Shown: one piece after another, positions 1 through 10,573 of the stretch
How positions within the stretch are numbered: the first letter of the stretch is position 1
Layout of the letters: each line of letters starts with the position of its first letter
Origin: Patescibacteria group bacterium
GTDB taxonomy: Bacteria > Patescibacteriota > Minisyncoccia > Phycocordibacterales > EsbW-18
Assembly: GCA_038064475.1 (NCBI GenBank)
Contig: JBBTTA010000001.1
Coordinates: 187,795-251,794 of the forward strand
Direction: 5' to 3'
DNA: 64,000 bases
Notes under the pieces: model-generated
Seen by the model: the letters and a program-made list of their open reading frames with translations, nothing else
What the model was told of the DNA's origin: nothing
Databases searched by the model: none
Translations under genes and position numbers: made by a program

Positions 1-1786
1 TTGTACGAACAAACTTCTTATCGTCGGTGGGAGGGTTTTTTACTTCAATATCTCCCTTCTCCGCAAACGAGTAGAGATAGAGTTCGCTGTAACCGTTCTC
101 AACCAAACAATCACGCACTTTATTCACGTAATAGAATGTTTTGTTTATCTCCGATGAAACCGAATTAGGAAGTGTTGCGGCAGGGATATTGTTGTAACCG
201 TACACACGACCAATTTCTTCGATGAGATCTTCAGTGACACGCACATCAATACGCTCAGATGGCACCGTTACAACAAAACGTTCTTCAGATGAAAGTAAGA
301 AGCGTTTGTACCCAACGATCGTCTTAAACGCAGGGCTTTCATCAAGACGCTCAACCACCACTTCCCCTTTGTGCCACAGACCTGATGCATGAATAATCTC
401 TCCATCTCCCAAGTAGATACCGCAGTGGCTCACCCCTCCTAAAACTACTGTTCCTGGCATCCATTCGCGCGAGACCTCTTGTATTGTCTTCTGTTCTACC
501 TCAACCCCGTCCGCTACTCGAGTAAACTTTGCGCTGTTTGATGCTTCTCTGCGTGAAAAAACAACATCTCCCGCTTGAAGATTTTCTTTTGAAACATCAG
601 CACCAAACACAAATTGGTCCACCGTCATGCGTGGAGTTGGTAAACCAACCTGCGCAAACAGAAAACTAACAAATGATGAACAATCAAAAGCATGCGGAGA
701 GTCAAGAAGCACACTTGCGCCGTATTTATACTTTGCACCAGCTAAACTCTTTGCTTTTTCAAGAAGTGTTGGAATTGGATCAACAACATCATGAGAAAAC
801 TGTAATCGTTTAAAAATATCTGCAATGTCTTTCTTTGTTATTGAAATACCGAGTGTTTTCTCAACTTCTTTTACAGAAACACCGAGCATGTAAGGATTTC
901 TTTTTTGGGGATAGAGATCGAACGTATCTGTCGCAATATGCCCGCTTGCATGTTGTGCGAACAGTTCAGATGCACGCTCAACGGCGCGTTCCACGAGTTC
1001 AGGTGTAATACCTTGCTCAAAACGCTTTGAGGCATCGGTGAGTAAACCAAGCGAGCGAGATGTTTTTCGCACAGACACAGGATTGAAGTTACATGCCGAG
1101 AGCACAATATGTTTTGTATTCTCATCGATGCCAGAATCTGCGCCGCCCTTCACGCCCGCAATATCAAGTGGTCCATTTTCGTCCGCAATCACTAACATGT
1201 TTTCTTTGAGCGTGTATGTTTTTCCATCGAGCGTTGTTACACTCTCTCCTTCTTTTGCGCCGCGTATCGTTATTGTTTTTGTATCTTTACCACCTGAAAT
1301 CTTGTCAAAATCAAATGTATGCACTGGCTGTCCTGTTTCAAGCATGACGTAGTTTGTAATGTCGACAATGTTGTTTATTGAGCGCTGACCTAATTTTTCA
1401 AGACGACCTTTAATAAGCTCTGGTGTTTTTCCAACAGAAACGTCCTTGATCAGCCGCACAGTTCCTCGCGGAACGAGTGTTGAATTCTCAACAGAAAACG
1501 TAATATGTTCTTGTGTGTTCACTTTCGCATCAGTTTTGTACGAGACAGGTGGTATACGAAATGTGAGTTCAAAAAGAGTTGCCACTTCACGTGCGATTCC
1601 GTGGTGTGACAAACAATCGTGTGCACGGTTTGGCAACACATCAACATCAATGATTGCATCTCCATCGGAAAGTACTTCAACGCCGTCGACTTCAAACGCA
1701 TGCATCGTCAATTTCTCCGCAATGTCGTTTGCAGACGGTAGTTTTTCTTCTATGAAATCTTGTAGCCACGAATGTAATACGTGCAT
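1..1786 (-). CDS. pheT: Phenylalanine--tRNA ligase beta subunit PheT. The 5' end is complete with ATG at 1786. The 3' end runs off the window.
   Basis: Hand translation of the minus strand from 1786 gives MHVLHSWLQDFIEEKLPSANDIAEKLTMHAFEVDGVE, which matches the E. coli PheT N-terminus. The B3/B4 region shows DITNYVMLETGQPVHTFD and the B5 end shows EEIGRVYGYNNIP. It sits directly downstream of pheS in the usual pheST order. The ORF track missed it because it has no stop codon inside the window. Confidence 0.85.
   Translation of the reverse strand, partial: MHVLHSWLQDFIEEKLPSANDIAEKLTMHAFEVDGVEVLSDGDAIIDVDVLPNRAHDCLSHHGIAREVATLFELTFRIPPVSYKTDAKVNTQEHITFSVENSTLVPRGTVRLIKDVSVGKTPELIKGRLEKLGQRSINNIVDITNYVMLETGQPVHTFDFDKISGGKDTKTITIRGAKEGESVTTLDGKTYTLKENMLVIADENGPLDIAGVKGGADSGIDENTKHIVLSACNFNPVSVRKTSRSLGLLTDASKRFEQGITPELVERAVERASELFAQHASGHIATDTFDLYPQKRNPYMLGVSVKEVEKTLGISITKKDIADIFKRLQFSHDVVDPIPTLLEKAKSLAGAKYKYGASVLLDSPHAFDCSSFVSFLFAQVGLPTPRMTVDQFVFGADVSKENLQAGDVVFSRREASNSAKFTRVADGVEVEQKTIQEVSREWMPGTVVLGGVSHCGIYLGDGEIIHASGLWHKGEVVVERLDESPAFKTIVGYKRFLLSSEERFVVTVPSERIDVRVTEDLIEEIGRVYGYNNIPAATLPNSVSSEINKTFYYVNKVRDCLVENGYSELYLYSFAEKGDIEVKNPPTDDKKFVRT
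380..760 (-). other. NlpC/P60-like papain-fold domain of about 125 aa, inserted in frame within the PheT B5 region.
   Basis: The inserted peptide reads AKYKYGASVLLDSPHAFDCSSFVSFLFAQVGLPTPRMTVDQFVFGADVSKENLQAGDVVFSRREASNSAKFTRVADGVEVEQKTIQEVSREWMPGTVVLGGVSHCGIYLGDGEIIHASG. It carries the Cys motif DCSSFV and the His motif HCGIYLGDGEIIHAS typical of NlpC/P60. It lies between the conserved B5 segments ...FKRLQF.. and ..SERIDVRVTEDLIEEIGRVYGYNNIP. E. coli PheT has only about 10 aa at this position. Confidence 0.55.
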
Positions 1787-1789
1787 AAT

Positions 1790-2527
1790 CTAGAACTGGT
1801 TTATAAGACGAACGTCACCTGACAGAAACATGCGAATGTCGGGCACGCCATACTTCACCATTGCCAATCGCTCGATGCCGACACCAAATGCAAAACCTTT
1901 ATACTTTCGCGGATCAATACCAACATTCGAAAGCACTTTTGGATGCACCGTACCTGCGCCCATAAGTTCAATCCAGCCTGTACCTTTGCAGACACCACAG
2001 GATTCATTTTTCCCTCCACACAAGAAACACTTTGCATCTACTTCAATTGTAGGTTCAACGAATGGAAAAAATCCTGGACGCATACGAATTGTTGCAGAGC
2101 TTCCAAAAAATTCTGACAACGCTTTCTCAAGTGTTCCTTTCAGTTGTGCGAGCGTAACATCTGTATCAACGACAAGACCTTCCATTTGATGAAAGACTGC
2201 TTCGTGCCGAGCATCTGTTGCTTCGCTACGGAATGTGCGCCCCGGCACGAGAATTCTGATTGGTGGCTCATGATTTTCCATGTAGCGAATCTGTACGTTC
2301 GATGTCTGTGTGCGCAAAACTGTTTTGTCTTTATCCTTGATCCAAAACGTGTCCTGCATGTCGCGCGCAGGGTGATCTTGCGGCACGTTGAGTGCATCGA
2401 AGTTGTGATATTCGTCGTCGATTTCAGGACCCTCAGCAATAGAAAAACCCATCTTTCTCATGATGCGTTCGAAATCGCGCTGAACAATCGTGAGCGGATG
2501 GTAGTGGCCTTTGTGTTCTGCCTCCAT
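1790..2527 (-). CDS. pheS: Phenylalanine--tRNA ligase alpha subunit PheS. This is a short 245-aa form that lacks the N-terminal coiled-coil region.
   Basis: Class II aaRS motifs are present: FRSEATDARHEAVFHQMEG and GFAFGVGIERLAMVKYGVPDIRMF. An in-frame stop lies 2 codons upstream of the ATG, so the short length is real. The stop at 1790-1792 abuts the pheT ATG at 1786. Confidence 0.9.
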   Translation of the reverse strand: MEAEHKGHYHPLTIVQRDFERIMRKMGFSIAEGPEIDDEYHNFDALNVPQDHPARDMQDTFWIKDKDKTVLRTQTSNVQIRYMENHEPPIRILVPGRTFRSEATDARHEAVFHQMEGLVVDTDVTLAQLKGTLEKALSEFFGSSATIRMRPGFFPFVEPTIEVDAKCFLCGGKNESCGVCKGTGWIELMGAGTVHPKVLSNVGIDPRKYKGFAFGVGIERLAMVKYGVPDIRMFLSGDVRLINQF

Positions 2528-2639
2528 AGAAACCTAGTATACCCTTGATTTTGAATGCCGAAAAGGATGTTTTTAGACATCGAACATGGAAGGGACTATA
2601 CTTGCGATGGATTCAAGTTCAAAAATGTAAGGGGGGGAT

Positions 2640-3074
2640 ATGTCTGTCTCTGGAGAATCACGAAGGATACACGAGAGTCGCCGCAAGCTTCCCGATACGC
2701 GGGAAAGCATCACGCACAAGTTCAAGATCGAGAACCACAAGGGGTACATCACTGTCGGTCTCTACGAGGATGGAATGCCTGGTGAGATTTTCATCGTGAT
2801 GGCGAAGGAGGGGTCCACGATTTCAGGACTCTTGGATGCGTTCGCGACTGCGGTTTCAATCGCGCTCCAGTACGGCGCGCCGCTCACCGTGCTCGCTGAC
2901 AAGTTCGTCTATTCTCGGTACGAGCCATCGGGGTATACAAAGAATCCCGACATCCCGCTCGCCCAGTCCATCGGCGACTACATTTTTCGATGGCTCATCA
3001 TTAAGTTCGGAACCGAAGAAGAGAAGGAAAATCTTCTCCCTACTCCGAAGACACTCACCGGTGAAAGCCTTTGA
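2640..3074 (+). CDS. Standalone TSCPD-domain protein, similar to the class II ribonucleotide reductase C-terminal domain. The Cys motif is absent.
   Basis: KGYITVGLYEDGMPGEIFIVMAKEGSTISGLLDAFATAVSIALQYGAPL resembles the C-terminal domain of B12-dependent RNR and TSCPD standalone proteins. The T-S-C-P-D Cys residues are replaced here (..DIPLAQSIGDYI..). A G-rich RBS, taagggggggatATG, precedes the start. Confidence 0.55.
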   Translation: MSVSGESRRIHESRRKLPDTRESITHKFKIENHKGYITVGLYEDGMPGEIFIVMAKEGSTISGLLDAFATAVSIALQYGAPLTVLADKFVYSRYEPSGYTKNPDIPLAQSIGDYIFRWLIIKFGTEEEKENLLPTPKTLTGESL

Positions 3075-3084
3075 GGCTTTCACC
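3060..3084 (+). terminator. Perfect 10-bp stem hairpin (GGTGAAAGCC-TTTGA-GGCTTTCACC) overlapping the stop codon of the TSCPD gene.
   Basis: The inverted repeat was read directly from the sequence. No U-run follows it, so termination function is uncertain. Confidence 0.3.
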
Positions 3085-3156
3085 CAAGAGCCCATTCTCG
3101 ACGCTAGCGTCGAAAATGGGCTTCGTTATTTTTCTAGCTTCTTGATTCTACTTAGT

Positions 3157-3171
3157 GAGCCGCCTCCCAGA
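3157..3171. repeat. 15-nt copy (GAGCCGCCTCCCAGA) of the tRNA-Thr 3' end, about 220 bp from the tRNA.
   Basis: Positions 3157-3171 are identical to 3390-3404, and 17 of 18 nt match when extended. The repeat is in the same orientation, which looks like an att-site or tRNA 3'-end duplication. Confidence 0.4.
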
Positions 3172-3387
3172 ATCTTCACGGTCTGGAAGCCCACGGTTTT
3201 CCAGTACCTTCCTTCACGGGGAAACTACAGTCTTTCTTACAGAATCTGTACACCTTTTGGATATTTTGCTCCGCAAACTATCTCAAAAGGTCTTGCGAAG
3301 CTTCGCTTCTCACCCGACCCCCTTCTAGTTCGAATCTGGACAGAATGTTCCTTCCCAACTTCCAACTAAAAACTTCTAAACTTATTT

Positions 3388-3463
3388 TGGAGCCGCCTCC
3401 CAGATTCGAACTGGGGACCTTCACTTTACAAAAGTGTTGCTCTACCAACTGAGCTAAGGCGGC
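3388..3463 (-). tRNA. tRNA-Thr with anticodon UGU, 76 nt, with an encoded CCA end.
   Basis: Reverse complement is GCCGCCTTAGCTCAGTTGGTAGAGCAACACTTTTGTAAAGTGAAGGTCCCCAGTTCGAATCTGGGAGGCGGCTCCA. It folds into a cloverleaf with a 7-bp acceptor stem, D-arm GCTC/GAGC, anticodon loop TTTGTAA, T-arm CCCAG/CTGGG and the TTCGAAT loop. Confidence 0.85.
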
Positions 3464-3469
3464 GTAGTG

Positions 3470-3871
3470 CTACTCTCCTATTTTATCATCTGAAACCTCC
3501 TCTTTCTTATCCATTTCACCCTTCAAACGCTTCAAGTAGAGCGATGGGGTGGTCTGTGAATATAACATCTTTTCACCCCGTACAGAACGTACCATACGGG
3601 CGGCCACCACAACAACAAGACCCCGGGTAGTTGCGCGAAGTTGTGCCAATGCACGGCGTCCGAAATCTTCTGTGCGTGCGCCGAAGGCGCGCGCTTTCAT
3701 TGCAACATGTGCCGCAAAACGATCGTAGCGATTCTCCCACACTGGTGAATGTGCAGAGAGTGTTCGCGTGAGTCGTCCCTGTACACCAGCCGTGAGCTCG
3801 CTTTGTTTAAAAAGAAAACGAGTTGCAAGAAGTCCGAGAGCGATAATGAAGACGATAAATGCGACAGTCAT
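3470..3871 (-). CDS. Hypothetical membrane-anchored protein with an N-terminal TM helix.
   Basis: The ORF has the hydrophobic N-terminus MTVAFIVFIIALGLLA. No family was recognised. Confidence 0.4.
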   Translation of the reverse strand: MTVAFIVFIIALGLLATRFLFKQSELTAGVQGRLTRTLSAHSPVWENRYDRFAAHVAMKARAFGARTEDFGRRALAQLRATTRGLVVVVAARMVRSVRGEKMLYSQTTPSLYLKRLKGEMDKKEEVSDDKIGE

Positions 3872-3874
3872 AGA

Positions 3875-4339
3875 TTAGAGCGCAAATTTCACGATGCGTC
3901 CAAGTTCTGTTCGTTCACCGAATTTTTGAACTGCACCGTCAATTAAACTACCCAACGTGCGTGATGGATCTTTGAAGAATGCTTCTTTAAGAAGTGCCTC
4001 GTTCCCCGCTGCAAGAAGTTCATCGTCTGTCGCAGCAACCTGCATAGCGATATCTTTTGCAATTTGCTGAAATTCTTCGTTGCGCGCAACGAAATCTGTT
4101 TCGCAGAGGAGTTCAACCATTGCACCCACAGCACCGTGGTTGTGAATGTATGCTTGCACCGTTCCTGAACCCAAATCGCGGCCTGCTTTCTTCGATGCAG
4201 TTAATGCCCCCTTCTCACGGAGAATATCCATAGCTTTTGTCATGTCACCATCCGCTTCCATCAATGCCTCGCGGCATACCATCATAGAGACGCCTGTAGC
4301 GTCACGGAGCTGCTTAATGTCTTGTGCAGTAACGGCCAT
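3875..4339 (-). CDS. tsf: Elongation factor Ts, short 154-aa form.
   Basis: AVTAQDIKQLRDATGVSMMVCREALMEADGDMTKAMDILREKG matches the EF-Ts N-terminal UBA-like domain. The gene sits downstream of rpsB, the classic rpsB-tsf arrangement. Confidence 0.85.
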   Translation of the reverse strand: MAVTAQDIKQLRDATGVSMMVCREALMEADGDMTKAMDILREKGALTASKKAGRDLGSGTVQAYIHNHGAVGAMVELLCETDFVARNEEFQQIAKDIAMQVAATDDELLAAGNEALLKEAFFKDPSRTLGSLIDGAVQKFGERTELGRIVKFAL

Positions 4340-4366
4340 ACAATATGAAAATTAAAATAACAAAAC

Positions 4367-5191
4367 TTACGCTCGCGGTGCCTCGCCCGTTTGGCTACGG
4401 CCAAGGGCGCGTTCACGACGTGGAGCACGTGAATGTGGCGCATCATCGCGTGTGCGAGAACGTGGAGCTTCAGGAACCACAATCTTTGGTGCATCCTTTG
4501 CGCCTTCACGGTAGCTCTCAACCAATCGGTCAACGAAGAATGCGATGCTGTGCACACTTGCATCGTTACCAGGAATCACGTGTGCAATTTTTGAAACATC
4601 ACAGTCTGAGTTTGCAAGCGCGATGATTGGAATACGCAATGTCATTGCTTCACGCACAACATTCTTTTCGTGCTTTGGATCAACAACAAACACAGCCCCA
4701 GGGAGTGAGCGCATTGGACGGAGACCACCAAATGTTGTTTCAAGACGCTTGATGTCGCGGTCAATCATGAGACGCTCTTTCTTTGTGTACTTCACGAGTG
4801 TTCCCTTCTCACGTTCATCCATGAGTGTCATGAGTTTTTCAACGCGCTTACGAATCAAAGCAAAGTTTGAAAGCGTACCACCCACATATCGTCCTGCAAC
4901 AAATGGTTGGTCAATTGCTTCACCTGCGCGACGAATTGCGCCTTGTGCTTCGAGTTTGCCACCGACAAAGAGAATTTGTTTTCCAACTTGAGCAAGGCCT
5001 TTTACGTAGCTTTCTACATCTGCGAGTGCTTCTACGCTCTTTTCAAGATCAAAGATATCGACACCGTTTTTTGCACCGAAGATGAACTTCTGTGCTGAAG
5101 GGTGGCGACGTGCTTTCGAATAGCCGTAATGAGCTCCTGTTGCAAAGAGCTTATCAACCATTGCTTTCGTGTCGTTTGAAACTGTAGTCAT
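4367..5191 (-). CDS. rpsB: 30S ribosomal protein S2 with a basic C-terminal extension.
   Basis: HYGYSKARRHPSAQKFIFGAKNGVDIFDLEKS and ...IPIIALANSDCD.. are S2 hallmarks. Confidence 0.9.
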   Translation of the reverse strand: MTTVSNDTKAMVDKLFATGAHYGYSKARRHPSAQKFIFGAKNGVDIFDLEKSVEALADVESYVKGLAQVGKQILFVGGKLEAQGAIRRAGEAIDQPFVAGRYVGGTLSNFALIRKRVEKLMTLMDEREKGTLVKYTKKERLMIDRDIKRLETTFGGLRPMRSLPGAVFVVDPKHEKNVVREAMTLRIPIIALANSDCDVSKIAHVIPGNDASVHSIAFFVDRLVESYREGAKDAPKIVVPEAPRSRTRDDAPHSRAPRRERALGRSQTGEAPRA

Positions 5192-5340
5192 TTGAATAAA
5201 TGGGGTTGATCCATTTTTTGGCTCCTCGGCTCGGAGATGAAAAAGTTACTTTTCCATCTCGCTCGCTCTACGTCGCCAATAAAAAGGCCCGTTTAGGGTA
5301 AAAGCACAATACCAAATTAGCGTGCTCTACGCAAGGTGCC

Positions 5341-6381
5341 TTAGGCTGCGTCCTCAGGGGTCATATCACCCGTGTATGCCGCCAAGCTGTCGATAATGCT
5401 AGGGTTTAGAAGAGTTTCTTTGAGCTTCTCGGTATTTCCACGACGTAAAAGTCCAAGGTATGACTGTGTCGTTCTAAAAGAAAACTCCTTTTCAAGTCGT
5501 CTCGACATCCTCCTTTTTGTCGTTGTCCTCAATACTCGGTGGTCAGGAAAATGTACCCATCCTAAGAAATCGACACCAGACGCAAGTGTTTTAATAAACA
5601 CTTTGTCAGGATGAGGTGCGAGTTTGAGTCGCTCTTCAAGAAAATCAGCAATTCTTGGAATCAACTCAGTAAGATAGTCTTTGTCATGAGATAGGACGAC
5701 AAAATCATCAGCGTACCGAATATAGTATTTTGCTTTGACTATGTGTTTCATCCACTGGTCGAATTCATTCATATAGATATTCACGAAAAGTTGTGAGGTG
5801 AGATTGCCTAGCGGCAGACCGACGCCGAGTCGCCCCACATAAAAACTTCCAGTAATCTCTTTGAGAAGCCCGAGTAACTCTCTGTCAAAAATATGTTTCT
5901 CTAGTATCTGTATCAGAATTTGGTGATCGACAGAAGCAAAGAACTTCCTGATGTCACACTTAAGAATCCAACATGTCCGAGTGTTATTTTTGCTCACTCT
6001 GTATCCAAATTGTTTGAATCGTTCAATTGCTTTATGTGTCCCCTTATTGAGACGACATGAATAGGAGTCCGCTATAAAACGTTTGTCGAAATAAAGATAC
6101 AGCTTTCTATAAATAGCATGGTGGAGAAGACGATCTTGGACAGTCGCCTTATGTATATTTCTTGGCTTTGGATCCGAAATGTTAAAAGCATCATAGCCTC
6201 CGTGACAATAGGTTCGTTGAGCAAGGTCGTGGTGGAGTTTCAATATGTTATCCATGAGTTTCCATTGAAAATCTTGCACGTCATTTTTTGACCGCTTCCC
6301 TTTTAAGAATTCGCGCCATGCGCCGAGAAGATTTTCGACGGAAATGATATCCTTGTAGTTATGAATGAAATTAAAAACCAT
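5341..6381 (-). CDS. DGR reverse transcriptase, Brt-like.
   Basis: The motifs are SVENLLGAWREF (cf. Brt TWENLLDAYRK), CRLNKGTHKAIERF (cf. YACRPDKGTHAGV), LKCDIRKFFASVDH, GLPLGNLTSQLFVNIY (the DGR-specific [I/L]GxxxSQ motif), RYADDFVV (the YxDD catalytic box) and GVDFLGWV. The last 15 aa derive from the duplicated prfA segment. Confidence 0.9.
   Translation of the reverse strand: MVFNFIHNYKDIISVENLLGAWREFLKGKRSKNDVQDFQWKLMDNILKLHHDLAQRTYCHGGYDAFNISDPKPRNIHKATVQDRLLHHAIYRKLYLYFDKRFIADSYSCRLNKGTHKAIERFKQFGYRVSKNNTRTCWILKCDIRKFFASVDHQILIQILEKHIFDRELLGLLKEITGSFYVGRLGVGLPLGNLTSQLFVNIYMNEFDQWMKHIVKAKYYIRYADDFVVLSHDKDYLTELIPRIADFLEERLKLAPHPDKVFIKTLASGVDFLGWVHFPDHRVLRTTTKRRMSRRLEKEFSFRTTQSYLGLLRRGNTEKLKETLLNPSIIDSLAAYTGDMTPEDAA
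5355..5399. repeat. Left direct repeat of the DGR insertion. It is a copy of the prfA 3' coding end that is read in frame as the RT C-terminus.
   Basis: CAGGGGTCATATCACCCGTGTATGCCGCCAAGCTGTCGATAATGC versus 8122-8166 differs at 1 position. It encodes IIDSLAAYTGDMTP in both ORFs. Confidence 0.8.
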
Positions 6382-6390
6382 ATAATAAAG

Positions 6391-6399
6391 CCCCCCCCC
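6391..6399. repeat. Homopolymeric C9 tract (G9 on the minus strand) in the 31-nt spacer between the divergent RT and avd start codons.
   Basis: Read directly. On the minus strand it forms the GAGGGGGGGGGC Shine-Dalgarno-like element 11 nt upstream of the RT ATG. Confidence 0.6.
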
Positions 6400-6412
6400 T
6401 CGATTAGTTTCA

Positions 6413-6757
6413 GTGGTTTTAAAGTTAAAAGATTGTTACGGAGTTTGGCAGCAGTACCTTCCCCACTTCCCGAAATCTCATCGTTTTACGTTAGGAAGCA
6501 AAATTGACGCTGTTTTTCTTGATGCTATCGAATCCTGTTTTTTTGCAAGCTATTCTTCCGGCCAGAAAAAAATAGATCTCGTTGATCAATCGATATCGAA
6601 GACAGATCTCACGAAGCTCCTACTCCAACTTGCTTGGGAAGTTCAGGCTCTGGATAACAATAAGTACGCGCACTTGAGCGAACTCTTAGGAGAGATTGGA
6701 AAGATGCTCGGAGGATGGAAACGACAACTCCTCAATAAAACTCCCGCCTCAAAGTAA
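6413..6757 (+). CDS. avd: Avd-like accessory variability determinant, a four-helix-bundle protein related to the 23S rRNA intervening-sequence protein family.
   Basis: Family signatures are YGVWQQY..FPKSHRFTLGSKIDAVFLDAIESCFFA...LSELLGEIGKMLGGWKRQLL, compared with LKVWQKA..FPKEERYGLTSQLRRAA..IAEG...EEIGKMLNGLIKSL. The gene is divergent from the RT and ends 22 nt before the TR. Confidence 0.7.
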   Translation: MVLKLKDCYGVWQQYLPHFPKSHRFTLGSKIDAVFLDAIESCFFASYSSGQKKIDLVDQSISKTDLTKLLLQLAWEVQALDNNKYAHLSELLGEIGKMLGGWKRQLLNKTPASK

Positions 6758-6778
6758 AGCGGGAGAACCGATGAAAGT

Positions 6779-6908
6779 GGCGAACGGCCAGGAACCGACA
6801 GGTGTCGTTCCAGTCGTCGTCCCGCCAGTTGAGGTTGAGGTTCCGCTTCGCGTCGTTCCTATTGAGGTACGGGACGTTGCGGTTGCCATTGACCAATCCG
6901 ACGGAGCC
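6779..6908 (-). repeat. DGR template repeat (TR). The sense strand is the minus strand, where the adenine-containing codons sit.
   Basis: The 130-nt segment is homologous to 7284-7416. On the minus strand the TR codons are AAC x7, AAT x2, GAC, AAG, AGG and ACC. The encoded peptide is GSVGLVNGNRNVPYLNRNDAKRNLNLNWRDDDWNDTCRFLAVR. Confidence 0.85.
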
Positions 6909-7151
6909 ATGTACGACGTGCCATCAGTACCACCACCCCTTGAACCACGTATCAATCGTAACAAAGTTTTTGGAGTTGTATCGTATTCGCGATCTTAAAA
7001 TATCGCAGAGCACATCGCACCAACTTTCTCTGGTTTTTATTCAGGACTCGGAAACACTCTTTCGACAGCCGTGACCGTCAAAACTCTCGCTCCCGAGCGT
7101 GCGAACAAACTATCTAAAGCCGTGACCGTAGATTTTTCGTCTGTTAGTTAC

Positions 7152-7159
7152 ATTATACA
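7152..7159 (-). promoter_or_regulatory. Extended -10 element (TGTATAAT) positioned to start the TR transcript just upstream of the TR.
   Basis: The reverse complement of 7152-7159 is TGTATAAT. It lies immediately after the hairpin terminator of the target gene. No clear -35 box is present. Confidence 0.35.
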
Positions 7160-7169
7160 AAAACGAAAG

Positions 7170-7199
7170 CCCGGCGCCACCTTGGTAGGTTGCGCCGGG
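7170..7199 (-). terminator. Hairpin (CCCGGCGC.ACC..GGTGGCGCCGGG) followed by CTTTCGTTTTTG on the minus strand. It is a candidate terminator for the DGR target gene.
   Basis: The stem is about 12 bp with 1 mismatch. It sits about 60 nt after the target stop, and a partial U-run follows. Confidence 0.4.
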
Positions 7200-7260
7200 A
7201 AGGTCCAAGACCAGAGTGCTCTACGCCTGAAGGCGTTGCAAAGGGTCAAAAACCAGAGAA

Positions 7261-7923
7261 CTACTTGCCTGCCTGCGCAGGCAGGCGAACGGCCAGGAAC
7301 CGACAGGCGACGCCCCAGCCGACGCCGTCCCGCCAGCGGAGGCCGAGGCTCCGCCCCGCGTCGTGCCCATGGAGGTACGGGACGCGGCGGTCGCCACCGA
7401 CCAAGCCGACGGAGCCGAGCGCGATCACCGGGAACTGTCGCTGAACCTCGGGGAAGCTTGCCCCGAAGGCGAGCAACTCTGCGATGGTCGCAGCGCGGTA
7501 TCCCGCCTTGTCGAGCTCACGCTCGACTTCGTCGGTGGTGGTGTTGCGGTTGAAGTGGAAGAGCTTCCCGTCCACCATGACCGTACCACCACCCGTGATC
7601 GGAAACCGCGCAGCGGTGATCTCGTTGTTCCGCCAGTCATACTTACCGGCGGCGATCATCTCCTCGAGCGACTTCCCGAAATCGATGGTGAAACGGCAGA
7701 TGCCCGTCGCGAGGTCGATCGCCGGAGCGAGGGGCGCGACGAGAGCGTTCACGAGGGCGTCGATGACGCGCTCCATGTCCGTCTTGCCTTTGTCGGTGAC
7801 GAGCGCATGAATGCGCTCGTTGTCCCAGCCGCGGGACAGAAGCCCTTTCACGAGTCCGAGTGCGAGCTGCATGAGCCAGCCTGCCCCGGAAATGATCGCT
7901 ACGGGAGTGTTCTTGCTTGCCAT
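7261..7923 (-). CDS. DGR target (variable) protein of 220 aa. The VR encodes residues about 171-214. GC content is high, about 60%.
   Basis: The ORF has an AAGGAG RBS and a consensus promoter. The C-terminal 44 aa (SVGLVGGDRRVPYLHGHDAGRSLGLRWRDGVGWGVACRFLAVRL) are encoded by the VR. The N-terminal about 170 aa belong to no family I recognise. Confidence 0.8.
   Translation of the reverse strand: MASKNTPVAIISGAGWLMQLALGLVKGLLSRGWDNERIHALVTDKGKTDMERVIDALVNALVAPLAPAIDLATGICRFTIDFGKSLEEMIAAGKYDWRNNEITAARFPITGGGTVMVDGKLFHFNRNTTTDEVERELDKAGYRAATIAELLAFGASFPEVQRQFPVIALGSVGLVGGDRRVPYLHGHDAGRSLGLRWRDGVGWGVACRFLAVRLPAQAGK
7267..7286 (-). promoter_or_regulatory. Perfect GC-rich palindrome (GCCTGCCTGCGCAGGCAGGC) immediately 3' of the VR and overlapping the target stop codon.
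   Basis: The 20-nt perfect inverted repeat was read directly. Its position matches the DNA hairpin/cruciform required for homing downstream of Bordetella phage VR1. Confidence 0.65.
7284..7416 (-). repeat. DGR variable repeat (VR) at the 3' end of the target gene.
   Basis: The VR differs from the TR at about 25 positions, all at TR adenines (A to G, C or T on the minus strand). One 3-nt in-frame indel is present. The 3'-terminal about 23 nt are identical to the TR and look IMH-like. Confidence 0.85.
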
Positions 7924-7989
7924 CGTCGTACTCCTTTTTCTGACGTGCTCCCCACCCTCACCACAATGGTTCGGGCCTCGAGCTTGTCT

Positions 7990-8040
7990 GTTGGTTACAG
8001 CTTTTAAGGCACTACAGATGCTCTAAAAGCTGTAACCAAC
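7990..8040 (-). promoter_or_regulatory. 17-bp stem hairpin in the 5' UTR of the DGR target gene.
   Basis: GTTGGTTACAGCTTTTA ...15 nt loop... TAAAAGCTGTAACCAAC. The two arms are perfect complements. Confidence 0.5.
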
Positions 8041-8071
8041 GAGTAGTTCTCTCAATGTTCTTCTGCTGACC

Positions 8072-8100
8072 ATTATACACCTATTATGAGTGTATGTCAA
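8072..8100 (-). promoter_or_regulatory. Consensus sigma70 promoter (TTGACA, 17 nt spacer, TATAAT) driving the DGR target gene.
   Basis: The minus strand reads ctaTTGACAtacactcataataggtgTATAATggt. It sits 12 nt beyond the prfA stop. Confidence 0.6.
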
Positions 8101-8107
8101 TAGTCTG

Positions 8108-9082
8108 TTATTCTTGATCCACAGGTGTCATATCACCCGTGTATGCCGCCAAGCTGTCGATAATGCGGTCCATATTGCCTCCCAAGATGCCTGGAAGGTT
8201 TGACCAGCTCTCTTTGATGCGGTGGTCGGTAATGCGATCCTGTGGGAAGTTGTACGTGCGAATTTTTTCAGAACGGTCCCCTGTTCCAATCTGGGCCTTT
8301 CGCTCACTTGAGAGCTTTTTGGCATCTTCTTCAACTTTGAGCACATCAAGCTTTGCCTGAAGAATTTCAAAGGCTTTCTCACGGTTTCTCTGCTGGCTTC
8401 GCTCTGATTGTGATTTCACAATAATCCCCGTTGGTGTGTGTACAAGACGAACAGCTGTTTCCACTTTGTTTACGTTCTGTCCTCCCGCACCACCTGAACG
8501 CGTAAATGTCATTTCAACATCTGCCATATTAATCGGAACCATTCCTTTTGCGCGCATAGGAAGGATTGCAACTGATGCAGTTGATGTATGTACACGTCCC
8601 ATCTTTTCTGTAGCGGGAATTCGCTGTACACGATGAATACCTGTTTCAAATTGGAGTTCCTTGTACACGTCTTTTCCTTTTATTTCAAATGAGGCGTCTT
8701 TGTAGCCACCCATCGTTGCACGCGCTTCATCGACAACTGACGATGACCACCCTTTCCTCTCGGCGTACTTTCGATACATGTTTGCAAGTTCTTCAGCAAA
8801 AAGTGCCGCCTCTTCTCCGCCAGCGCCTGCACGCACTTCAAGAATAATTTCATTTGGAAATTCATCCTCTTCTTTTTCACTCTCAAGAATGCCTTTGATC
8901 TGTCCTTCGATAAAAGCATATTGCTCATCAATGCGAAGAATGTCTTCCTTTGCGAGATCTGCGAGTAGAGGATCATCCCCCGCTGCCGCTTCAGCTTCGG
9001 CACGCTCCTTTTGCAGACGCTCTAATTCAAGCGCTAAGTAGGCAGTTGTATGATTTTTTTTGAGTTCGTCGAGATCCATCAC
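8108..9082 (-). CDS. prfA: Peptide chain release factor 1.
   Basis: The GGQ motif (RSGGAGGQNVNKVETAVRL), the RF1-type PAT tripeptide (RIPATEKMGRVHTS) and the RTYNFPQDRITDHRI C-terminal region are all present. Confidence 0.9.
   Translation of the reverse strand: MMDLDELKKNHTTAYLALELERLQKERAEAEAAAGDDPLLADLAKEDILRIDEQYAFIEGQIKGILESEKEEDEFPNEIILEVRAGAGGEEAALFAEELANMYRKYAERKGWSSSVVDEARATMGGYKDASFEIKGKDVYKELQFETGIHRVQRIPATEKMGRVHTSTASVAILPMRAKGMVPINMADVEMTFTRSGGAGGQNVNKVETAVRLVHTPTGIIVKSQSERSQQRNREKAFEILQAKLDVLKVEEDAKKLSSERKAQIGTGDRSEKIRTYNFPQDRITDHRIKESWSNLPGILGGNMDRIIDSLAAYTGDMTPVDQE
8122..8166. repeat. Right direct repeat. This is the authentic prfA 3' coding end.
   Basis: It matches 5355-5399 at 44 of 45 nt. 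Confidence 0.8.
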
Positions 9083-9336
9083 GTTAGAGACAGGAAACGT
9101 TTGAGACGATTCTTGATATACCGTTCTCCCATTCCTGATTTTAAATATTTTTCCCTTGCCCTTGCGTCATCCTCATTATGGCATGCCTCGTAGTATATAA
9201 CCGACCAAGGAGTATATCTTTTTGTCCAATAACTTTTACCTTTGTTATGTTCATTCAAACGTTTCCGTAAATCTTTCGTTACTCCCGTATACAGTTTGTC
9301 TGCCTTTTTACTTTTTAGAATATATACGTAAAACAT
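9079..9336 (-). CDS. GIY-YIG nuclease-domain protein of 85 aa.
   Basis: MFYVYILKSKKADKLYTGVTKDLRKRLNEHN...WTKRYTPWSVIYYE is the GIY-YIG/UPF0213 signature. It overlaps the prfA start by 4 nt. Confidence 0.7.
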   Translation of the reverse strand: MFYVYILKSKKADKLYTGVTKDLRKRLNEHNKGKSYWTKRYTPWSVIYYEACHNEDDARAREKYLKSGMGERYIKNRLKRFLSLT

Positions 9337-9423
9337 ACTGTATGGTCTCTAACGTGATCCATAGATCAATGCTAGCACAGAGAAAGCGCCGCCCGCTTCA
9401 TGCGGACGGCGCTTTCAAAAACG

Positions 9424-9699
9424 TTACGCTTCTGTCTTCTTAGGAGCTCGTGGCTTCTTTGTTGCCGCAACCTTCTTCACGCTCTCGCGCTTTGATGTCG
9501 CAACACCCTGACGAGTCTTGAACTTCTCAAGACGGCCGGCGAGGATCTTCTTACTGTCGTCCCCGATATAGAACGGATGGCACGCAGAACACACTTCAAC
9601 ATCAATAGTTTCCTTGGTTGAACCAACCGTAAACGTGTTCCCACAGGCGCACTTAACAGCCGCCTTTGGGAAATATGTTGGGTGTATATCGGTCTTCAT
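9424..9699 (-). CDS. rpmE: 50S ribosomal protein L31. The start is at the internal Met of the 138-aa ORF.
   Basis: MKTDIHPTYFPKAAVKCACGNTFTVGSTKETIDVEVCSACHPFY is the L31 signature with its CxxC...C zinc ribbon. A Lys-rich C-terminal extension follows. Confidence 0.8.
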   Translation of the reverse strand: MKTDIHPTYFPKAAVKCACGNTFTVGSTKETIDVEVCSACHPFYIGDDSKKILAGRLEKFKTRQGVATSKRESVKKVAATKKPRAPKKTEA

Positions 9700-9764
9700 A
9701 TAAAGTAGAGGTTGGAAGTTAGAGGTTGGAGATTGGTACACGGAACCACCTAACAGCCGAAGCA

Positions 9765-9794
9765 TACTAGCACAAAATATGCGTTTTCTGCAAG
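9765..9794 (-). promoter_or_regulatory. Sigma70-like promoter (TTGCAG, 18 nt spacer, TAGTAT) for rpmE.
   Basis: The minus strand reads TTGCAGaaaacgcatattttgtgcTAGTAT, about 60 nt upstream of the rpmE ATG. Confidence 0.4.
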
Positions 9795-9870
9795 TTCCCA
9801 GTTCTTTTTTCTTTACGGTAGAGCGAGCATACTCTTCCAATCCTTCTTTCTTTACGGTGGAGCGAGCTTG

Positions 9871-9975
9871 CTACACCACAATGACTCGCGCAGACCGACG
9901 GGCCGAACGGGAGTGCCGTTTCAGCAGAAACGGACACGTGTCATTGTGGTGTGGCCAAGCGAGCACTTTTTTTGG
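9871..9975 (+). other. Structured intergenic element. A 12-bp outer stem (CACCACAATGAC/GTCATTGTGGTG) encloses an inner 7-bp hairpin and is followed by a T7 run on the plus strand. Two 21-nt direct repeats (TTCTTTACGGTnGAGCGAGC) lie nearby.
   Basis: Read directly. It may be a plus-strand terminator or an r-protein leader. No known RNA family was recognised. Confidence 0.3.
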
Positions 9976-9982
9976 CAACTTT

Positions 9983-10573
9983 TTACTCTAGCCCCTGCTG
10001 TGCCAAAAGAAGTGCGATGAGTTCTAGTATGAGCTCTCGAAGCCGTTCGAGAATGACTATACGAGCCGCAGAATCTAATTCTGTTATAACAGGTGTCTCT
10101 GGTGCAACAACTACTTCAGGTTGTGTAAGAGCTACAGGAGGTGGAATAACACGACTTGATGAGCCCCCTCCGCCACCTCCAGCGTCAGGGTCAGTACAAG
10201 TACCTGATGGCGTTACTGTAATCGTTACCGTTCCTCCCAGAAGACCGAGCCGTGATTCTCCTCCTGAACAATATTCACTAGTCACATACCCCTCTGGCCC
10301 GTTGTGTGTAAAACCAACACCATCGGCAGAAGCGACAATAATCGCTGAACTAAACGGCAGTGTCACGACGAAATTTGTCGGATTGATGATAATTTGTTCA
10401 ATGAGTGCGCTTGAACCATATATCGTGAGTTCATATCCATTGACATCCAGAATCGTTGTCGTCTCAAGTATAACATCATTAAACACCGCATTCGATATAA
10501 ATGGCAGACAAAGAAGAACAAGAGCTGGAATAAATAGTCTTTTCATAAATTGAAGGAGAAAGATTATGAGCAC
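9983..10573 (-). CDS. Secreted hypothetical protein with a signal peptide and a Gly-rich segment.
   Basis: The N-terminus is hydrophobic (MLIIFLLQFMKRLFIPALVLLCLPFISNA). There is a GGGGGGSSS linker. Confidence 0.45.
   Translation of the reverse strand: MLIIFLLQFMKRLFIPALVLLCLPFISNAVFNDVILETTTILDVNGYELTIYGSSALIEQIIINPTNFVVTLPFSSAIIVASADGVGFTHNGPEGYVTSEYCSGGESRLGLLGGTVTITVTPSGTCTDPDAGGGGGGSSSRVIPPPVALTQPEVVVAPETPVITELDSAARIVILERLRELILELIALLLAQQGLE

Follow-up and report, generated by a model that had tools for sequence, protein, structure and literature searches.

A conserved, length-unstable C/G tract between the divergent reverse transcriptase and avd genes of a patescibacterial diversity-generating retroelement, and its possible role as a slippage switch

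In the diversity-generating retroelement (DGR) of Bordetella phage BPP-1 (mtd-avd-TR-brt), the accessory gene avd, the template repeat (TR) and the reverse transcriptase (RT) gene brt are co-directional and possibly carried on one transcript, and RNA from the TR-brt spacer takes part in priming. Genes that undergo phase variation through repeats in their promoters include Neisseria meningitidis porA (poly-G between the -35 and -10 boxes) and opc (poly-C) as well as Bordetella fim (poly-C), and in Haemophilus influenzae, a (TA)n repeat is situated in the divergent promoter of hifA and hifB. Here, we describe a DGR of a Patescibacteria group bacterium, in which avd and the RT gene diverge from a 31-nt spacer that contains a run of nine Cs (C9). 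The 64,000-nt stretch of DNA analysed (positions 187,795 to 251,794 of contig JBBTTA010000001.1; hereafter, the window) lies within a 324-kb contig from Hainich groundwater well H41. We hold with high confidence that the run is a real, conserved and length-unstable repeat, and we lean towards reading it as a slippage-driven switch or dimmer that would act on the transcription or initiation of RT and/or avd.

The survey by Wu et al. (2018; PMC5758913) gives DGR architecture B3 as TR-(avd)-RT and assigns it 90% of the DGR set from the candidate phyla radiation (CPR). The window, with avd on the opposite strand and flanked by TR and RT, corresponds to this definition, and its layout is identical to that of the CPR B3 DGRs, which have the same order and strand direction of the target gene with its variable repeat (VR), the TR, the reversed avd and the RT gene, and a single target. 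The initial annotation had placed RT, TR sense and target on the minus strand and avd on the plus strand, with 31 nt between the start codons, all of which was confirmed; it had also presented the inverted avd as a departure from the Bordetella-type order. That layout is already known and is standard in the clade, as 73 of the 74 relatives with sufficient upstream DNA have avd next to RT and divergent from it, and we discarded it as a novelty. With the BPP-1 DGR, the locus shares an RT, an Avd, adenine-specific differences between TR and VR, a target gene with the VR at its 3′ end and a GC hairpin that follows the VR only; it differs in its reversed avd, in a TR unit that appears to end at a terminator-like hairpin, and in an RT gene that would need a promoter of its own. 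We found no paper that links DGRs with homopolymers or phase variation, in a literature coverage that did not extend to the main CPR DGR paper (Paul et al. 2017, Nat Microbiol). For Bacteroides DGRs, a recent study describes as unknown both the regulation of DGR activity and the way in which hosts weigh diversification against losing a variant that works (bioRxiv 10.1101/2024.11.15.621889).

The features around the spacer are the following (window coordinates).

5341-6381, minus strand: gene for the 346-aa reverse transcriptase of the DGR (RVT_1 in Pfam, E = 7e-22)
6381-6386, plus strand: candidate -10 box of avd, a perfect TATAAT in avd sense, situated 4 nt ahead of the C run (read from the sequence)
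6382-6412: divergent spacer of 31 nt, from the RT ATG to the called avd GTG
6391-6399, plus strand: C9 simple-sequence repeat (G9 on the RT-sense strand)
6413-6757, plus strand: avd (accessory variability determinant), 114 aa, GTG start (Pfam bAvd, E = 3e-15)

The RT has thousands of homologues in Patescibacteria, at 65-73% identity, and it is 60-73% identical to many CPR RTs; in NCBIfam, which holds no DGR-specific RT model, its best relative is a group II RT that scores under the cut-off. Avd, for which 131 homologues were collected, reaches 64 bits (E = 1e-17) with the NCBIfam model DivGenRetAVD, below the model cut-off of 80. The start of avd is uncertain, the residues RLVS directly before the GTG being conserved among homologues. 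An N-terminal extension of the RT through the G run was rejected, as the interval from the upstream stop to the run holds no start codon in any of the frames.

The C run was found exactly where the initial annotation had put it, and it is the sole G/C run of at least 8 nt within the 64-kb window. Shuffled windows contain 0.44 8-mer matches on average, and 10 out of 100 reach the two overlapping matches observed; judged by the window alone, the tract is mildly unusual, and its significance comes from the relatives. As relatives, we fetched 80 loci from GTDB genomes with an RT 58-69% identical to that of the window (counts over 81 loci comprise these and the window; locus L001 is identical to window positions 1341-10381). 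A G run of at least 6 nt is present upstream of RT in 69 of the 81 loci, with lengths of 6-14 nt, most commonly 9-11 nt, and the Gs are on the RT-sense strand in all loci with a mononucleotide tract. Over the 80 loci, the spacer zones (12 kb) contain 66 G/C runs of at least 8 nt versus 4 in the remaining 575 kb, an enrichment of some 780-fold, and 66 of the 80 related loci carry such a run at the spacer position. Three of the four outside runs are likewise linked to DGRs: one is in a duplicated module of avd and an RT fragment, and two precede DGR-linked genes in one Saccharibacteria contig. Five relatives without a G run carry (GA)n, (GT)n or (CT)n of at least seven units in the same place, and no such repeat exists elsewhere in the set; overall, dinucleotide repeats occupy the tract site in six loci (L045, L052, L057, L078, L083 and L126).

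An outgroup of 80 relatives on viral contigs (RT 33-60% identical, 288 kb) delimits the occurrence of the repeat. Its two closest members carry G11 and a long (CT)n in the spacer; no tract was found in the outgroup loci with divergent avd and RT identity of at most 48%, nor in the 45 loci with co-directional avd. Because these distant loci of either arrangement are devoid of it, the repeat is a trait of this CPR clade, and neither of DGRs generally nor of the B3 layout. Loci in which avd and RT are separated offered no informative case as to which of the two genes the tract follows (L075 has the duplicated module, and L041 is without a tract).

The Saccharibacteria contig (L007) harbours two DGRs and G10 runs at 3404-3413 and 5253-5262. 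One of these precedes a surface-protein/target operon in the arrangement TTGCCA-N18-TATAAT-N6-ATG, with the G10 inside the N18; the other precedes the co-directional avd2-TR2-RT2 of a second, unrelated DGR (G10-TGATAT-N6-ATG). Several DGR-linked promoters may thus be marked by a G run ahead of a -10-like box.

Length polymorphism of the C tract, which the initial annotation had named as the thing to look for, is present, at the level of assemblies rather than reads. By look-up of the exact RT and Avd proteins, we obtained 11 independent assemblies of the window strain (4 ENA assemblies and 7 Logan runs); other populations were grouped by exact Avd, and the tract lengths were taken from assemblies throughout. 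The lengths are distributed as follows.

Window strain (11 contigs): C7 in one, C9 in five, C10 in five
P0194: C9 in six, C10 in two, C12 in one
P0143: C9 in four, C8 in one
P0126: C9 in two, C10 in one
P0175: C10 in two, C11 in three
P0190: C8 in seven, and one contig with a substitution inside the run
P0177: C8 in five

All five populations with a modal tract of at least 9 nt vary in length, and the two C8 populations (P0190 and P0177; 12 contigs with C8) show no length change. In the window strain, the flanks of the tract are identical and the tract is the sole indel in about 20 kb of aligned sequence. Over that length, the 11 assemblies differ from the window at only five places: the C tract, VR positions 7310 and 7313, a single-nucleotide polymorphism in a contig of coverage 3, and one base at a contig end. 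Tract lengths 9 and 10 each occur with both of the two VR haplotypes, giving all four pairings, which indicates recurrent change at one or both sites. Three marks of a contingency locus are found together here, namely a tract long enough to slip (about 7-8 G/C or more) between divergent starts, length polymorphism within the strain, to which sequencing error may contribute, and retention across relatives; the fourth mark would be a reversible change of expression with tract length, and the four pairings are the sole hint of recurrent change.

The mutator that the tract would control is complete and has recently been active. The initial annotation had extended the TR region to 6925; a TR is present, although its core (6779-6908) ends short of that position. 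Read on the minus strand, every mismatch in the 130-nt TR/VR core falls at a TR adenine, and there is one 3-nt in-frame indel (around 6819 in the TR and 7324 in the VR), where the VR has four GNC triplets and the TR three GAC. The homology ends at GTTCGCC, after which a GC hairpin continues on the VR side and is absent after the TR; such a hairpin associated with the initiation of mutagenic homing (IMH) is described for DGRs in the 2018 survey (PMC5758913). The distance from the TR to the downstream RT start is 397 nt, and the VR lies within the last ~50 codons of the target gene (7261-7923, minus strand). Since the mismatches are adenine-specific and the same-strain substitutions at 7310 and 7313 fall on TR-adenine sites of the VR, we regard the DGR as real and active: an RT beside a TR, adenine-specific TR/VR differences, an IMH-like end with a hairpin and ongoing diversification are all in evidence. 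Strong divergence of the VR was seen in one related population.

The remainder of the cassette bears on where RT and avd could be expressed from. In minus-strand order, it reads: release factor gene, consensus promoter, target gene with VR, GC hairpin with T-rich tail, TATAAT, two hairpins, TR; then a terminator-like hairpin with T-run, avd (on the plus strand), the 31-nt spacer with C9, RT and rpsB. The individual elements, from the avd stop codon upstream to the release factor gene, are listed below.

6731-6765, minus strand: terminator-like hairpin (6765-6741) with T-run, in TR sense, which overlaps the stop codon of avd
6779-6908, minus strand: core of the TR, sense on this strand
7043-7133, minus strand: two leader hairpins with GGUCACGGC loops (motifs at 7076-7068 and 7127-7119), upstream of the TR
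7152-7157, minus strand: TATAAT, candidate -10 box of the TR-RNA (from sequence and geometry in relatives)
7158-7199, minus strand: GC-rich hairpin (7170-7199) and T-rich tail, likely terminator of the target gene (read from the sequence)
7261-7923, minus strand: DGR target gene, 220 aa, 66% GC
7267-7286, minus strand: IMH-associated GC hairpin at the 3′ end of the VR, 8-bp stem and 4-nt loop (from sequence)
7284-7416, minus strand: VR, 3′ end of the target gene
8072-8100, minus strand: sigma-70-type consensus promoter upstream of the target gene, TTGACA-17-TATAAT, 12 of 12 matches
8108-9082, minus strand: release factor gene

Three transcription units would make up the cassette. The target gene would be a unit of its own, between its consensus promoter and its terminator; the hairpin of the latter (7170-7199) was read by eye from the sequence, its loop being too long for the terminator scan used, and analogous hairpins were found in relatives. 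A second unit of ~400 nt would run from the TATAAT at 7157-7152 through the two GGUCACGGC hairpins and the TR to a hairpin and U-run at the avd stop codon. The divergent pair of avd and RT would constitute the third.

The second of these units modifies what the initial annotation had proposed. The TGTATAAT sequence, cited there as an extended -10, does exist on the minus strand at 7159-7152 and includes a perfect TATAAT at 7157-7152, but its TG is one base too close for TGnTATAAT. The role of this TATAAT as the promoter of the TR-RNA is supported at the level of consensus and geometry: in nine relatives that share the GGTCANGGC hairpin, the target terminator is followed by a TAnnnT box, 24-27 nt and the hairpin, upstream of the TR. 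The leader-hairpin loop, GGUCA(A/C)GGC(U), occurs upstream of the TR in about 10 relatives (among them L006, L016, L033, L045, L072, L075, L077 and L080), and the window has two copies of the hairpin as a direct repeat, 51 nt apart. In Rfam, RT-7 (RF03028) is an orphan motif found near RT genes. The region scores 24.1 bits with it (gathering score 116.8), the match being confined to the 5′ hairpin in one copy, which places the region outside that family; no Rfam family reaches its gathering score in the region, and no RT-n family does so in 18 relatives. The fold of the TR-RNA region has a z-score of -3.1.

The TR-RNA had further been expected to run antisense into avd, and this is mostly contradicted. 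A hairpin and T-run are located exactly at the avd stop codon, on the TR-sense strand, in the window and in 64 of 71 relatives; the conserved C-terminus of Avd, ...NKTP, is encoded by the strand complementary to its T-run and stem. The hairpin may be either a terminator of the TR-RNA or a structural part of the DGR RNA; in the window, the one at 6731-6765 is the likely 3′ end of the TR-RNA. Given its position, the overlap of the TR-RNA with avd is probably only about 17-25 nt. The arrangement suggests a discrete TR-RNA of ~400 nt that ends at the edge of avd. With a TR unit that probably stops short of avd, both RT and avd would have to use the 31-nt spacer, in essence a G/C homopolymer, and its immediate flanks for their expression, and the room for an RT promoter would be limited to the spacer and the first avd codons.

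All promoter assignments around the tract are consensus readings and are put forward as candidates. In 22 of 69 loci, a TAnnnT hexamer directly follows the G run (the chance estimate is about 2-3), and in 13 of these 22, the RT ATG is exactly 7 nt further on; the pattern would suit a leaderless mRNA, with a -10 box abutting the run and the run serving as the -35/-10 spacer, as in porA. A -35-like hexamer then coincides with the antisense of Avd Leu-Pro codons, at a spacer length, run included, of mostly 17-19 nt. A second subclass, to which the window belongs, has CTTTAT directly after the G run; in the window, the run ends 9 nt before the RT ATG. Read in reverse complement, relatives of this subclass have TATAA(A/T)-AG before the C run, and transcription of avd from the TATAAT at 6381-6386 may start inside the C run. 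Most long open reading frames of the window have no Shine-Dalgarno (SD)-like motif within 25 nt, and in several, a TAnnnT box precedes the start by 7-9 nt; leaderless or short-leader mRNAs thus seem frequent in this organism.

In the reading that we favour, slipped-strand mispairing would alter the length of the tract at high frequency, each change would shift the promoter or 5′-untranslated region (5′-UTR) geometry of RT and/or avd, and cells would alternate between mutagenesis-competent and quiet states. The broader proposal, which we advance tentatively and with somewhat less assurance, is that throughout this large clade of Patescibacteria, RT and/or Avd are under a heritable, reversible and stochastic simple-sequence-repeat switch, by which only a subpopulation would diversify the target at any time. 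Several points weigh against a switch. The step from tract length to RT or avd output is one that we infer. About 10% of the relatives are without any tract, which is therefore not essential. A test for compensation in the -35/-10 spacer was weak (r = -0.19, permutation p = 0.086). In the window, RT has no -10 box at the leaderless position, and the promoter model transfers poorly here. The dinucleotide tracts (22-44 nt) exceed the length of a sigma-70 spacer. Changes of 1 nt in C9-C10 are the commonest error of Illumina sequencing and assembly, and several variant contigs have a coverage of 1-5.

The last point raises the possibility that the length differences, or the tract itself, are an artefact of sequencing or assembly. 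The dependence of variability on length fits slippage and fits sequencing error too, and in three scaffolds (L038, L064 and L072), N gaps adjoin the G run, from which it follows that assemblies tend to break there. Against this stand the position of the tract inside contigs, between conserved coding flanks, in assemblies from many studies and years, and the constancy of every other homopolymer in the same contigs. Moreover, the C7 and C12 variants differ by 2-3 nt, C8 is stable even in contigs of coverage 1-4, as thin as the variable ones, and tract length spreads from 6 to 14 nt between species. For these last three reasons, a purely technical origin of the length variation is unlikely, and we rate the artefact as the least probable of the explanations considered, at the margin of credibility. 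The most serious competitor, still unlikely in our judgement, is a fixed cis-element that works the same at any length, either a G-rich ribosome-binding or 5′-UTR element of RT or a promoter element; the length variation would then be the tolerated by-product of a homopolymer in a genome possibly poor in mismatch repair. The initial annotation had taken the run for the SD element of RT, which would fit the window, where the run ends at a workable SD spacing of 9 nt from the ATG (5-10 nt being expected of such an element) and RT is among the few genes with any SD-like motif; another window gene has G7 (2631-2637) 2 nt before its ATG, and the constant G orientation on the RT-sense strand points the same way. 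The fit does not extend to most of the relatives, in which the distance from run to RT ATG is most commonly 13 nt and ranges to more than 50 nt. Nor does SD function require 8-14 Gs, and (GT)n or (CT)n take the same place in some relatives. The near-absence of such runs elsewhere (4 in 575 kb) suggests that it is the repeat property itself that has been selected.

A translational frame switch for Avd is a lesser candidate, and an improbable one. Avd would start at an ATG before the run, which would be read as poly-proline or as ER/SL repeats, and avd would be in frame at one length class in three (in the window, C8, C11 and C14, from the ATG at 6361). Many Avd homologues in databases are indeed called through the repeat (e.g., MRPPPPRLLPV, ...TPPPRL...RLIPV and MMERERERERG...). 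No stop interrupts the avd frame on the way from the tract to the conserved region in any of 66 loci, the stretch that leads from the tract to the conserved LLPV lacks ATG, GTG and TTG in around half of the loci, an ATGATG abuts the run in P0175, and every repeat type seen is non-triplet. Upstream ATGs in frame with avd are nevertheless as frequent as expected by chance (20 of 66 loci), and in the four populations for which this was computed, no upstream start is in frame at the dominant length; in P0175, both C10 and C11 are out of frame with the ATGATG by hand reading. In the window, lengths 7, 9 and 10 are all out of frame, the avd frame has two stop codons (TAATAA) immediately ahead of the run, and the GTG start already yields a near-complete Avd domain, in which positions 17-106 of the 107 of bAvd match from residue 15. 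The poly-proline switch was rejected as the principal explanation on account of the chance-level ATGs and the out-of-frame dominant lengths, and it is kept as a minor rival. Less probable again, and by our estimate rather remote, is an effect of DNA structure or transcription chemistry: non-B DNA (triplex, Z-DNA or i-motif) could insulate or couple the divergent promoters, or reiterative transcription could sense CTP/GTP pools. Reiterative transcription controls Bacillus subtilis pyrG and E. coli pyrBI and codBA through tracts of 3-8 nt, which are not known to be length-polymorphic. The window resembles them in having a homopolymer at or near a likely transcription start, the perfect TATAAT 4 nt before the C run being placed to put the avd start inside it, although its tract is longer (9 nt) and polymorphic; furthermore, non-B DNA is accessible to every repeat type observed, whether homopurine/homopyrimidine (G/C, GA/CT) or alternating (GT). 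Such chemistry leaves the length variability unexplained and is compatible with switching, and the promoter it invokes is a candidate from consensus matching.

The switch that we favour has close parallels in form. Like porA, opc, fim and hifA/hifB, the present locus has a G/C run of about 8-14 nt, or a dinucleotide repeat, in a short promoter region, which is length-polymorphic in populations; as at hifA/hifB, the repeat lies between two divergent genes, and as in porA, the run abuts a -10-like box in many relatives. It differs from porA-type loci in its host, a non-pathogenic ultrasmall groundwater bacterium, in its genes, which encode the enzymes of a targeted mutator and not a surface antigen, and in that control by the repeat is deduced here.

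A slippery repeat in the sole control region of avd and RT offers a concrete and testable mechanism for a very large group of uncultivated bacteria. If the proposal is true, one hypermutable sequence gates another, which would explain in general terms how cells keep down what DGR mutagenesis costs them. The tract and the VR are ~900 nt apart and both fit on one long read, and existing data suffice for testing. There is a practical side as well, in that assemblers mis-call or break at the tract, as in the three gapped scaffolds, and gene callers add spurious N-terminal extensions to Avd. Even if the repeat has no effect on expression, the tract, the avd-stop hairpin and the leader hairpins of the TR-RNA are new conserved landmarks of CPR DGRs; the excerpted text of the 2018 survey (PMC5758913) makes no mention of the spacer repeat, the avd-stop hairpin or the GGUCANGGC leader hairpins. 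In one Avd homologue, P0168, the called N-terminal extension contains a 12-nt repeat (SQPASQPASQP), where others carry the mono- or dinucleotide repeat.

The cassette is flanked by a 49-nt direct repeat, the copies of which are 96% identical and enclose 2.77 kb.

5351-5399: left copy of the 49-nt direct repeat
8118-8166: right copy of the 49-nt direct repeat

The 3′ end of the release factor gene forms the right copy. The left copy is translated, in an unchanged frame, as the last ~17 codons of RT (5341-5399), by which RT ends in the C-terminal tail of the release factor. The pair looks like the footprint of a recombination-driven insertion at the 3′ end of the release factor gene. In L006, an RT of the same clade is directly followed by an N-terminally truncated release factor gene and an extra tail fragment. 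A circular form of the element, suggested by Logan contigs that span exactly 5370-8156, was rejected, as their ends fall at the start and end of the 31-mers shared by the two repeat copies.

The target gene (7261-7923) has no family match in Pfam or NCBIfam. Its GC content is 0.66 overall and 0.62 without the VR. Target genes of the clade (L006, L011, L016, L036, L043 and the window) are GC-richer than RT (0.49-0.66 versus 0.37-0.41) and exceed the host loci too; as GC-rich targets are general in this DGR clade, a horizontal origin of the window's target gene was discarded. Between its consensus promoter and its start, a 22-nt inverted repeat (7990-8040; 91% complementary, 7-nt loop) without a T-run after it could be an operator or a 5′-UTR structure. 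Finally, in another DGR population from Hainich, a T4/T5 length difference (L104, L105 and L108 versus L106, L107 and L109, at about position 206 of the locus) splits the RT gene in three of eight assemblies, a frameshift polymorphism.

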